Shown here piece by piece: positions 9,036 to 9,595 of a stretch of 61,893 bases of DNA (the first letter of the stretch is position 1; every line of letters begins with the position of its first letter). Made by a program: the position numbers and the translations under genes. Source of the stretch: an uncultured Bacilli bacterium (GTDB lineage: Bacteria > Bacillota_I > Bacilli_A > RF39 > UBA660); NCBI GenBank assembly GCA_947628785.1, contig CANRBE010000001.1:1-61893 (forward strand), read 5' to 3'. Below the pieces are notes generated by a model. That model ran no database searches and was not told where the DNA came from. It saw only the letters and a list, made by a program, of their open reading frames with translations.

Positions 9036-9059
9036 AAAAAAAAGAATACTTATGTATTC
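9036..9059 (-). terminator. intrinsic terminator at the left end of module copy A
   Basis: Minus strand GAATAC-ATAA-GTATTC followed by T8. Conserved in copy B (50798..50819). Confidence 0.55.
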
Positions 9060-9177
9060 TATAAAAAAAACTAGTTTAGTTATTTTATTTTTATGGTTTA
9101 ATTTATACTGATATTTTTTTACTTAATAATGTTTTAAAATCTGTCGAATTAAGTCGAACGTTTTTTCATATTTTTTA

Positions 9178-9207
9178 TTGACTTTTTTTATTATTATATG
9201 TTAGTAT
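9178..9207 (+). promoter_or_regulatory. possible promoter for the plus-strand small-ORF transcript
   Basis: -35 TTGACT (9178-9183), 18-nt spacer (19 in copy B), TGtTAGTAT extended -10 (9202-9207). The spacer is longer than optimal. Confidence 0.35.
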
Positions 9208-9294
9208 ATCTTACTGAGACGTACTTTACTTTCAAGGGGTTTTCGGTATTTTCCCTTTTTATTTTAATTTTAAGATAGAAAGGTGATGATGCTT

Positions 9295-9402
9295 ATGAAA
9301 ATTTATTTTATAAGCTTTAATAAATATTATAAAACATCAAGATTTAACATCTTAGACTTTATTCTATTTATCATCAATGTTTACTTCAAAATAAAAAGAT
9401 AA
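9295..9402 (+). CDS. 35-aa aromatic/hydrophobic peptide MKIYFISFNKYYKTSRFNILDFILFIINVYFKIKR (candidate type I toxin-like peptide)
   Basis: AGAAAGGTGAT SD lies 7 nt before the ATG. The ORF and SD are 100% identical in copy B (51046..51153). Below the ORF-track length cutoff. Confidence 0.5.
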   Translation: MKIYFISFNKYYKTSRFNILDFILFIINVYFKIKR

Positions 9403-9404
9403 AC

Positions 9405-9506
9405 ATGAAAAACACCGTTTCCTATGAAAGCGGTGTTTTCCTCTAACCAAAAATTTAAAGGGAAATACCACTTAGGTATGTCTCTTTTTTATGAAGTTTC
9501 CTTCAC
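9405..9506 (-). ncRNA. predicted ~100-nt sRNA, convergent to and overlapping the 3' region of the small-ORF transcript
   Basis: Bounded by a near-consensus promoter (9513..9541) and the hairpin plus T5 at 9440..9405. No ORF. Ends are predicted, not measured. Confidence 0.45.
9407..9440. terminator. bidirectional hairpin shared by convergent units of module copy A
   Basis: GAAAAACACCGTTTC-CTAT-GAAAGCGGTGTTTTC. There is a T run on the plus side (T4) and on the minus side (T5). Confidence 0.55.
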
Positions 9507-9512
9507 GCTTTA

Positions 9513-9541
9513 ATAATATCATATTTTCTTTGTTTTAGCAA
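9513..9541 (-). promoter_or_regulatory. near-consensus sigma-A promoter for the minus-strand sRNA
   Basis: Minus strand: -35 TTGCTA (9541..9536), 17-nt spacer, TGaTATTAT extended -10 (hexamer 9518..9513). Copy B has TTGTTA with the same spacing. Confidence 0.5.
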
Positions 9542-9595
9542 GTATTACCTTGTTATATTGTATGGTTTACTTGATTAATCATATTTTATTATCCT

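Follow-up and report, generated by a model that had tools for sequence, protein, structure and literature searches.

Short dispersed repeats in bacterial intergenic DNA range from MITE-like elements, such as the Correia, BOX/RUP and bcr elements, to the LDR repeats of E. coli, which are about 0.5 kb long. Several type I toxin-antitoxin loci share a compact layout. The passage of PMC12643268 that cites Kawano 2002 describes the LDR repeats as carrying a 35-aa toxin and a cis-encoded antisense RNA. In yonT/SR6, two sigma-A promoters with extended -10 boxes produce a toxin mRNA and a 100-nt antitoxin that overlap by ~65 nt at their 3' ends (PMC5848175), and the par/Fst locus combines convergent promoters with a bidirectional terminator and a stem-loop that sequesters the Shine-Dalgarno (SD) sequence (PMC7472228). 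The locus described here is a duplicated intergenic module with similar elements. We tentatively read it as a new, lineage-specific type I toxin-antitoxin-like cassette with the layout of Firmicute type I loci, an assignment whose chances we put a little below even.

A duplicated intergenic module

The window, meaning the whole 62-kb stretch of DNA analysed, belongs to an uncultured AT-rich spore-former and has a GC content of 25%. A blastn search of the window with copy A (9021-9563) recovers copy B (50778-51314) at 92.5% identity over 548 columns (E = 0). The two copies are collinear, in direct orientation and 41.7 kb apart, which bears out an earlier note that had reported a ~0.5-kb module occurring twice. 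No third copy is present in the window, where the next blastn matches are AT-rich noise of no more than 70 nt. That note had also placed each copy between the terminator hairpin of one minus-strand gene and the promoter of the next minus-strand gene. This context holds for both copies, which lie on the strand opposite to their flanking genes:

9624-10352, minus strand: hydrolase gene with terminator hairpin, upstream-gene neighbour of copy A
TTGACA 9026..TATTAT 8999, minus strand: sigma-70-like spoIIP promoter beside copy A
51386-52642, minus strand: pilin-like gene with terminator hairpin, upstream-gene neighbour of copy B
TTGACA 50783..TACAAT 50755, minus strand: sigma-70-like promoter of the TPR gene beside copy B

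The module contains no transposase and no ORF of 60 aa or more, as previously stated; its longest ORF is 42 aa. The weak terminal inverted similarity described for it does exist, but it is not a terminal inverted repeat, because the right member overlaps a -35-like hexamer and the left one is an arm of a local hairpin, GAATAC-TTAT-GTATTC (9044-9059). An inverted-repeat search of the module returned only weak AT-rich pairs and local hairpins, no flanking duplication common to copies A and B was seen, and the module bears no signature of an IS or MITE. Its left end consists of a small hairpin followed by a variable spacer:

9036..9059, minus strand: copy A left-end hairpin, GAATAC-ATAA-GTATTC then T8, weak and intrinsic-terminator-like, just upstream of the spoIIP promoter
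50798..50819, minus strand: copy B left-end hairpin, GAATAC-ATAA-GTATTC with a T-run, upstream of the TPR-gene promoter
9060..9177, no strand assigned: copy A AT-rich variable spacer, with 12 differences from copy B

The left-end hairpin of copy A folds at -5.9 kcal/mol, and the same hairpin occurs at locus B of a contig from a sister species (L022). The copy A spacer holds the direct repeat GTCGAA-TTAA-GTCGAA (9143-9158), and 9060-9177 gives no structure signal (z = -0.46).

The predicted sense unit

The module had been described as non-coding-looking. That description overlooks a 35-codon ORF that follows a canonical SD and is identical in copies A and B, and convergent promoter-like sites around a bidirectional hairpin. 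The sense arm comprises the following elements:

9178..9207, plus strand: copy A sense promoter-like site, TTGACT, 18 nt, TG-n-TAGTAT (extended -10), from a promoter scan
50928..50958, plus strand: copy B sense promoter-like site, TTGACT, 19 nt, TG-n-TAGTAT, from the sequence and motif positions
9214..9294, plus strand: copy A predicted 5' leader, from folding
9281..9287, plus strand: copy A Shine-Dalgarno sequence AGGTGAT, 7 nt 5' of the ATG
9295..9402, plus strand: copy A 35-codon ORF and stop, product MKIYFISFNKYYKTSRFNILDFILFIINVYFKIKR
51032..51153, plus strand: copy B SD (51032-51038) and identical 35-codon ORF (51046-51153)

The copy B site went unreported by the promoter scan because its spacer is longer than 18 nt, and in strain L001 the copy A sense -10 reads TAGTCT. 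Folding predicts a leader hairpin of 13-15 bp at 9252-9286 (-12.7 kcal/mol), found in both the MFE and the centroid structure, in which CCUUUUUAUUUUA pairs with UAAGAUAGAAAGG; this pairing buries the SD. A second predicted hairpin (9291-9315, -8.7 kcal/mol) buries the AUG. The SD and the AUG would thus each lie within a hairpin of a predicted sense RNA whose fold has z = -5.6.

The 35-codon ORF is also identical in the metagenome haplotypes L001, L014 and L018, and its stop lies 6 nt upstream of a strong hairpin flanked by A- and T-runs. Of the eight AGGTGAT sites in intergenic DNA of the window, seven are followed by a start codon. Taking 15 AGGTGAT, 31 GGAGG and 91 AGGAG sites together, only those of the two module copies and one intragenic site precede an ORF of 20-59 codons. 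No gene caller has called the 35-codon ORF in any assembly.

The peptide is basic and aromatic-rich, with a charged C-terminal tail, KIKR. Coding potential by codon usage was rejected: the log-likelihood ratio of -0.45 per codon is at the level of spurious ORFs and below 99.9% of real-gene windows, so the ORF looks non-coding. No convincing transmembrane segment was found in the peptide, whose longest apolar stretch is 15 aa and includes D21, N18 and N28. A rough estimate of its insertion energy (dG_app) is +3.2 to +8.7 kcal/mol; by the same rough estimate, classical toxins, in the sequences that we take to be theirs, scored about -0.8 to +4.5 kcal/mol. The values of 53 spurious ORFs from the window span those of the peptide in hydrophobicity, charge and amphipathicity, and membrane-toxin properties were rejected as indistinguishable from those of such ORFs.

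The shared hairpin and the candidate antisense unit

Downstream of the ORF, a central hairpin separates the sense arm from a convergent arm on the minus strand:

9409..9440, both strands: copy A hairpin, candidate bidirectional intrinsic terminator with 5' A-run and 3' T-run
51158..51193, both strands: copy B bidirectional hairpin, -21.5 kcal/mol sense and -14.6 kcal/mol antisense
9513..9541, minus strand: copy A antisense promoter-like site, TTGCTA, 17 nt, TG-n-TATTAT (extended -10), kept in copy B
51292..51264, minus strand: copy B antisense promoter-like site, TTGTTA at 51292, 17 nt, TATTAT at 51264, with TG
9405..9505, minus strand: copy A candidate antisense RNA of ~100 nt, folding as three hairpins including the shared terminator
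51256 to 51157, minus strand: copy B candidate antisense RNA, spanning 51157..51292 together with its promoter-like site

In copy A the shared hairpin is predicted at -13.3 kcal/mol in the sense and -17.6 kcal/mol in the antisense direction; the G left as a bulge in copy A finds a partner in copy B, an additional T. A simple terminator scan did not call this central hairpin as a terminator. The TG-extended promoter-like sites are exactly the convergent pair that brackets the ORF and the hairpin. Promoter-like hexamers as such are frequent in DNA of 25% GC; they numbered 12 against 6.8 +/- 2.5 expected, and 5 against 4.9 in a second scan.

The fold of the candidate antisense RNA has z = -5.4, which becomes -1.7 once the terminator is removed. 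Structure signals are not strand-specific in the module. The plus strand of the antisense region folds too, and the block at 9445-9505 could equally be a 3' extension of the sense RNA or a second terminator. The mRNA and the antisense RNA are predicted to overlap by ~35-40 nt at their 3' ends, at the shared hairpin. Beyond the terminator, their complementarity is no better than that of shuffled sequences. For pairing of the antisense 5' part, 8-17% of shuffles matched the observed duplex energy with the initiation region and 26-89% with the whole mRNA, and a second complementarity of the Fst type was rejected by this shuffle test. GCTTTAATAA, a direct repeat of 10 nt found at 9314 and 9507, lies mostly inside the antisense promoter-like site.

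The two arms have a 21-nt motif in common, placed about equally far from each promoter-like site (p about 0.01-0.06). An ancient inverted duplication of the convergent arms was considered and rejected, because the shared part is limited to this motif. The segment 9457-9469 has two alternative predicted partners, 9245-9258 and 9471-9483, which hints at a possible RNA switch.

Many of these features would also suit one or two small regulatory RNAs, perhaps accompanied by a small protein that does no harm. The ORF would then be incidental or have a dual function, and the core would be kept for RNA structure or seeds. One such seed may be the U-rich CCC motif GGUAUUU(U)CCCUUU, found in both convergent arms. 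Leader and ORF are equally invariant, third codon positions included, and the stable predicted folds, the spacing of the 21-nt motif, the possible switch and the non-coding-like codon usage and peptide properties point the same way. Set against this, the SD-7 nt-ATG geometry with a stop right before the terminator is improbable by chance (1-10% by a rough estimate). Housekeeping small RNAs are usually conserved among relatives, unlike the module, which is species-specific and duplicated into unrelated sites. On balance, regulatory RNAs are a somewhat unlikely explanation, though one to be taken seriously.

Occurrence in relatives and databases

In the synteny comparison that the earlier note had proposed, the orthologous hydrolase-spoIIP spacer of a relative (L016) measures 69 nt, consists of the terminator and the promoter, and lacks the module. 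Its flanking proteins are 62%, 61% and 65% identical and the gene order is unchanged. A further relative (L017) is likewise without the module. Since these relatives lack it, the module is no conserved spacer. Compared with L016, locus A has additional DNA that is flanked on both sides by CAAAAAA(A), at 9024-9031 and at 9599-9605. L022 was considered as a clean empty site for copy B and rejected: an IS transposase abuts its hairpin, which makes this contig uninformative on the presence or absence of the module.

An Rfam scan at the gathering threshold, also proposed in the earlier note, found no family in the module and only three tRNAs in the whole window. A permissive scan of the module gave noise, with ohsC_RNA as the best match at 23.6 bits against a cut-off of 50 (E = 0.36); the lack of any meaningful match even at E <= 10 weighs against a regulatory RNA. 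The peptide has no Pfam or NCBIfam match at E <= 10, and its single match in PHROGs is to a PHROG of unknown function (E = 0.047). No homologue of it was found in 5.8 billion proteins by a word-indexed search with a padded query, or in 1.84 billion representatives by exhaustive phmmer. Searches with the DNA gave a similar picture: blastn found no phage or plasmid match, an exact 20-mer had 10 chance matches in unrelated phyla among 185,579 species genomes, two module 24-mers had no match in JGI metagenomes, and viral contigs gave only chance matches within coding sequence. An nhmmer profile and tblastn against 25 retrieved loci returned only copies from the same species.

Uneven conservation and apparent exchange between copies

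The earlier note had described a core differing at one base between flanks that collect substitutions and indels. This is confirmed, and the unevenness is statistically supported. Within the 214-nt core (9200-9413) the sole difference between copies A and B is 9244 C/T, while both flanks differ by ~8%. Substitution and indel events number 12 in the left flank (9044-9199) and 13 in the right flank (9414-9555), leaving 1 of 26 in the core, which makes up 42% of the length (binomial P ~1.5e-5). Differences in the right part are located in a hairpin loop, a bulge and the linker, and the parts proposed to be functional are where the conserved blocks lie. Orthologous copies from different strains show the same pattern, with 0 of 19 differences in the core (9207-9413) and all 19 in the flanks. 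Between strains, the module flanks are 12 times as variable as the neighbouring DNA and the core is invariant.

Selection rather than a very recent duplication had been proposed to account for this pattern. The first half of the argument stands: a core that is invariant both between paralogues and between strain orthologues makes recent duplication alone an insufficient explanation. Recombination or gene conversion had been overlooked. Copy A of L001 and L014 carries B-type variants over 9414-9472 with A-type variants on either side, so exchange between the copies by recombination or gene conversion, or else an assembly chimera, apparently also shapes the variation. If real, the combination of hypervariable flanks, an invariant core and apparent exchange would offer a compact case for how small selfish cassettes persist and are homogenised.

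The mosaic in L001 and L014 could also come from a non-coding dispersed repeat without a product, either a promoter/terminator "insulator" or a decayed transposase-less mobile element, copied by illegitimate or homologous recombination and with core identity arising from recent gene conversion. This origin would suit the 12-fold variability between strains, the position of the module boundaries in T-runs of terminators and A/T tracts of promoters, the CAAAAAA(A) brackets at locus A, the left-end hairpin already present at locus B in L022 and the frequency of promoter-like hexamers by chance. Conversion between paralogues, however, cannot explain 0 core against 19 flank differences among strain orthologues. 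Such an element would also leave unexplained the SD, ATG, ORF, terminator and two TG-extended convergent promoters, and real terminal inverted repeats, a consistent target duplication and the long-hairpin fold of MITEs are all absent. The 62 kb contain just two copies, and the other searchable collections yielded none. We therefore regard this origin as unlikely.

An artefact in this metagenome-assembled genome, affecting the duplication or the mosaic, is a highly improbable source of the pattern. The ENA contig coverage is ~4x, A and B share identical stretches of at least 55 nt that could permit chimeric assembly paths, and the module is where several metagenome contigs stop. Direct repeats of 0.5 kb at a distance of 41.7 kb visibly break metagenome assemblies, and they are substrates for deletion or amplification. 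Nevertheless, copies with their own unique flanks were recovered independently from different samples and assemblies, copy A in L001 and L014 and copy B in L018, in addition to the 61.9-kb contig. L001 and L014 agree base for base, and only the fine mosaic could be artefactual, not the existence of two copies.

Proposed mechanism and significance

As a type I toxin-antitoxin-like cassette, our preferred reading, the module would work as follows. A sigma-A-type extended -10 promoter (9178-9207) would produce an mRNA of ~230 nt, whose leader hairpins would mask the SD and AUG and keep translation of the 35-codon ORF (9295-9402) low. From the opposite side, another extended -10 promoter (9541-9513, minus strand) would produce the ~100-nt antisense RNA. 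The common bidirectional hairpin (9409-9440) would terminate both RNAs, and their 3' ends would consequently be complementary over ~35-40 nt. Pairing of these ends may mark the mRNA for double-strand-specific cleavage and decay, as in yonT/SR6, bsrG/SR4 and txpA/RatA. A drop in antisense RNA would then allow the basic, aromatic-rich peptide to be produced and to harm the cell. At the left end, the hairpin and T-run (9059-9036, minus strand) might block antisense-direction read-through before it reaches the next gene's promoter.

A bolder proposal, which we consider decidedly doubtful, is that the module founds an unrecognised type I toxin-antitoxin-like family. Such a family would be defined by a 35-aa peptide that is strongly basic, rich in aromatic residues and devoid of a classical transmembrane helix, would spread as a 0.5-kb cassette without a transposase into terminator/promoter junctions, would be kept uniform by gene conversion and might use an RNA switch that sets 9457-9469 against the leader anti-SD.

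If the preferred reading is correct, a spore-forming lineage that is very AT-rich and poorly sampled gains an orphan type I toxin-antitoxin-like family, and short dispersed intergenic repeats would again prove a practical route to unannotated cassettes. If the ORF is untranslated, the module would be a species-specific small-RNA gene pair or a structured repeat, of local interest only.

Comparison with known systems

The module resembles MITE-like repeats in being short and transposase-less, in lying between terminators and promoters and in being able to carry such signals. Unlike them, it has no terminal inverted repeats, consistent target-site duplication or whole-element hairpin and was seen in two copies only, and it has an internal SD-ORF-terminator organisation.

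With the LDR loci (ldr/rdl), as portrayed in the citing passage of PMC12643268, the module shares its first recognition as dispersed direct repeats in intergenic DNA and the length of its peptide, 35 aa. The same passage has Rdl encoded "immediately upstream", beside the 5' end of ldr, whereas the candidate antisense RNA of the module lies at the 3' end. Ldr is, moreover, a clear single-pass membrane peptide from another phylum and has no sequence relationship to the module. Measured against the generic marks of type I systems, the module has an ORF of fewer than 60 aa with its own ribosome-binding site, the codon usage being non-coding-like; it lacks a hydrophobic toxin with a predicted transmembrane domain.

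The par locus (fst/RNA II) of Enterococcus and other Firmicutes comes close in architecture. Convergent promoters, a shared bidirectional intrinsic terminator and a 5' stem-loop that sequesters the SD are features of par and are predicted in the module, where the terminator hairpin folds at -13 to -21 kcal/mol; complementary terminator stem-loops could initiate pairing (PMC7472228). The module differs in that a second complementarity of the DRa/DRb type over the start site does not rise above chance. In contrast to Fst/Ldr, its peptide has no N-terminal transmembrane helix, conserved Trp, P/D/S/TxxxG(C) motif or long charged tail.

The B. subtilis loci yonT/SR6, bsrG/SR4, bsrE/SR5 and txpA/RatA differ from the module in their overlap, about 65-120 nt against a predicted ~35-40 nt that is the terminator itself. 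The module, known so far from its sequence, also lies outside any prophage, and its peptide has neither sequence similarity to their toxins nor a convincing transmembrane helix. In organisation, the likeness is considerable: a small ORF faces a convergent antisense RNA of ~100 nt with complementarity confined to the 3' ends (PMC5848175), an arrangement predicted here as well. As in the yonT/SR6 group, the whole forms a compact stand-alone unit in which the ribosome-binding site of the toxin, here the putative one, is partly structured (PMC5848175).

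A duplicated cassette in matching settings

The module is a real, species-specific, duplicated cassette. Copy A (9021-9563) and copy B (50778-51314) align collinearly in blastn at 92.5% identity over 548 columns, bearing out the earlier note that it occurs twice in direct orientation. A blastn search with copy A against the whole 61,893-nt window, which has a G+C content of 24.6%, found no third copy. The uneven conservation described in that note also holds: within the core (9200-9413) the copies differ at one base (9244, C/T), whereas the left flank has 12 differences and the right flank 13, so that only 1 of 26 falls within 42% of the length (P ~1.5e-5, our own arithmetic). 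As had been proposed, each copy fills the gap between the terminator hairpin that ends one minus-strand gene and the sigma-70-like promoter that opens the next. The two genes are a hydrolase gene and spoIIP at copy A, and at copy B a type IV pilin-like gene and one for a TPR protein; the minus strand carries 42 of the 48 long ORFs of the window. An ORF scan of both copies again revealed neither an ORF of 60 aa or more nor a transposase, yet the description "non-coding-looking" stands only in part, as a 35-codon ORF with a Shine-Dalgarno sequence (SD) is identical in A and B.

These 0.5-kb direct repeats, 41.7 kb apart, flank housekeeping genes (uvrA, tRNAs and others), and the segment between them could be deleted or tandemly amplified through the repeats. 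No recombinant junction between the copies was seen in the contigs examined.

Anatomy of one copy

Features of the module, in copy A coordinates
9021-9042: tandem 11-nt repeat (TGTCAAAAAAA / TGTTAAAAAAA) where the module meets the spoIIP -35
9044-9059, + reading: left-end hairpin GAATAC-TTAT-GTATTC, preceded by A8, -5.9 kcal/mol
9060-9177: variable AT-rich spacer, no structure signal (z = -0.46)
9178-9207, +: sense promoter-like site TTGACT-18 nt-TAGTAT with TG extension (promoter scan)
9252-9286, +: leader hairpin holding the SD, 13-15 bp, -12.7 kcal/mol (minimum-energy and centroid folds)
9281-9287, +: SD AGGTGAT, with ATG 7 nt downstream
9291-9315, +: leader hairpin holding the AUG, 10 bp, -8.7 kcal/mol (minimum-energy and centroid folds)
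9295-9402, +: 35-codon ORF, MKIYFISFNKYYKTSRFNILDFILFIINVYFKIKR, identical in copy B
9409-9440, both strands: central hairpin 6 nt past the ORF stop, A-run 5', T-run 3'
9541-9513, -: antisense promoter-like site TTGCTA-17 nt-TATTAT with TG extension (promoter scan)

Read on the minus strand, the left-end hairpin followed by T8 would form a weak terminator-like element. The sense promoter-like site has a 19-nt spacer in copy B and reads TAGTCT in one strain, while the antisense site is kept in copy B as TTGTTA-17-TATTAT. A candidate antisense RNA running from about 9505 to the shared hairpin, which is stable on either strand in predicted folds (-13 to -21 kcal/mol), would measure about 100 nt and form three hairpins (z = -5.4); the candidate sense RNA, 9214-9444, folds with z = -5.6.

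When the terminator is left out, the sense strand falls to z = -3.15 and the opposite strand scores -2.77, and across 9445-9505 the + strand folds at least as well as the - strand; folding thus gives no strand assignment. Window DNA is rich in promoter-like hexamers, with 12 in copy A (6.8 +/- 2.5 expected) and 5 in copy B (4.9 expected), and the two TG-extended sites are exactly the convergent pair. A simple terminator scan did not call the central hairpin in either copy, probably because its A and T runs pair together and lengthen the stem. Complementarity between the 5' part of the antisense RNA and the initiation region was no better than in shuffled sequences. The leader carries GGTATTT(T)CCCTTT at 9245-9258, where it overlaps the anti-SD; the reverse complement of this motif occupies 9457-9469, and a related sequence 9471-9483. 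On the + strand, the 9457-9469 segment may pair locally into a hairpin followed by T6, a possible second terminator; pairing with the leader instead could free the SD. Block 9445-9505 may be part of the antisense RNA or of a sense RNA that extends further.

Possible translation of the 35-codon ORF

The main support for translation comes from a survey of SD sites. AGGTGAT occurs 15 times in the window, and seven of its eight intergenic sites stand ahead of a start codon, in five long genes and in both copies of the module. Among all AGGTGAT, GGAGG and AGGAG sites, a 20-59-codon ORF follows only the two in the module and a single intragenic one. One intergenic AGGTGAT site lacks an intact ORF: in the 867-nt "intergenic" stretch 38128-38994, stops and frameshifts interrupt the frame after the SD at 38934, a HEFVH-like motif lies beyond, and the stretch reads as a decayed minus-strand gene.

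The peptide itself resembles chance ORFs. Its hydrophobicity is equalled by 34-51% of the 53 spurious 30-45-aa ORFs of the window, and its codon usage, at -0.45 bits per codon against a spurious-ORF mean of -0.46, lies below 99.9% of real 35-codon windows. A rough membrane-insertion energy of +3.2 to +8.7 kcal/mol is typical of spurious ORFs and worse than that of classical toxins; by these measures there is no convincing transmembrane helix. That the cassette is RNA-only, or encodes a benign small protein, we consider somewhat unlikely. The cassette does not belong to any known toxin family; the Fst/Ldr signature, DRa/DRb and a convincing transmembrane helix are all missing.

Strain variation and exchange between copies

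The SpoIIP protein of the window occurs unchanged on ENA metagenome contigs, and its TPR protein is recorded in NCBI, ENA and Logan. Copy A is present on same-species contigs L001 and L014, which match each other exactly, and copy B on L018, where it is the same as in the window. Comparison of L001 with the window shows 19 variant positions in the 543 nt of the module (3.5%) and 40 in the remaining ~13.9 kb (0.29%); none of the 19 falls within 9207-9413 (P ~1e-4, our own arithmetic). L001 copy A carries copy-B variants across 9414-9472 and A-type variants on either side, a mosaic that points to sequence exchange between A and B. At a coverage of about 4x, identical stretches of at least 55 nt may instead have led the assembly along a chimeric path. 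An artefact as the explanation is very improbable and would concern the mosaic only. A product-less dispersed repeat homogenised by conversion is an unlikely account of the module as a whole.

Window copy A differs at about nine positions in ~60 nt (9413-9475; hairpin base, bulge and linker) from the version common to copy B and L001/L014 copy A, and an unseen third copy may be the source of this outlier segment. Five independent short metagenome contigs (L002, L003, L019, L020, L021) end inside the module at positions ~100-280, the start of the near-identical A/B stretch, as is typical when a repeat breaks assembly. Elsewhere, the pilin-like gene (51386-52642) shows ~40 variant positions between window and L018 within ~190 nt (51950-52138), against only ~10 in the rest of the 5.5-kb alignment, and looks like a hypervariable or recombined pilin segment. 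Similar tight clusters occur in a 727-aa TPR-like gene (47747-47834, L019) and near 2353-2440 (L014), where the alignment also breaks.

Sites without the module in relatives

Relative L016 keeps the gene order (SpoIIP 65%, hydrolase 62% and SIR2 61% identical), and its hydrolase-spoIIP gap is only 69 nt long, with a terminator hairpin that leads into the -35; this is a clean empty site. L017 (SpoIIP 59%) likewise has hairpin and promoter only. L015 (SpoIIP 76%), on a contig too short to judge, carries unrelated, AT-rich, non-coding sequence at this place, 180 nt or more (1-180), with its own hairpin and T-run upstream of the spoIIP promoter. The spoIIP site may be a recurrent landing place for different inserts, although the L015 contig is too short to tell. 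The sequence present in the window and not in L016 (9032-9598) is flanked on both sides by CAAAAAA(A), at 9024-9031 and 9599-9605, which could be a target duplication or mere terminator/promoter A/T tracts; no equivalent was seen at copy B.

Contig L022 of the sister species (TPR 82%) retains an identical GAATAC hairpin, upstream of the TPR gene, and the promoter at locus B. Because the 3' end of a DDE transposase gene of an IS element lies 25 nt from the hairpin (L022 3-680 and 681-760), L022 is uninformative on module presence or absence. This transposase sits exactly where the window species carries the module, and an IS insertion or IS-mediated deletion is possible. Copy A was probably copied from a B-type copy, since it carries the locus-B hairpin and relatives have different hairpins at locus A; alternatively, the hairpin may belong to the module, with L022 keeping a remnant. 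No DNA or peptide homologue was found elsewhere in protein sets, phage and plasmid sequences, species genomes, metagenomes or viral contigs.

Comparison with known systems

The Firmicute type I toxin-antitoxin layout, together with published parallels, leads us to rank a toxin-antitoxin-like cassette first, tentatively and at somewhat under even odds; such an organisation of the module is plausible. The predicted layout would combine a small ORF and its SD with concealed initiation signals, a small RNA read convergently and a shared bidirectional terminator. Like such loci, the module is also compact and stands alone, is duplicated and is confined to a lineage.

The yonT/SR6 locus of B. subtilis has two sigma-A-type promoters, each with an extended -10 box; its antitoxin RNA measures 100 nt, the 3' ends of the two RNAs share an overlap of ~65 nt, and decay is RNase III-dependent (PMC5848175). 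The module similarly has a TG-extended promoter-like pair, and its candidate antisense RNA would be ~100 nt. Par/Fst loci combine convergent promoters, a bidirectional terminator and an SD-sequestering stem-loop (PMC7472228). The module is predicted to share this arrangement, with convergent promoter-like sites, a shared bidirectional hairpin and the SD inside a leader hairpin, but differs in having neither the Fst/Ldr signature nor the DRa/DRb feature. The E. coli LDR repeats are dispersed direct repeats that each carry a 35-aa toxin gene and an antisense RNA (Kawano 2002, cited in PMC12643268), and the module resembles them as a dispersed direct repeat with a 35-codon ORF.
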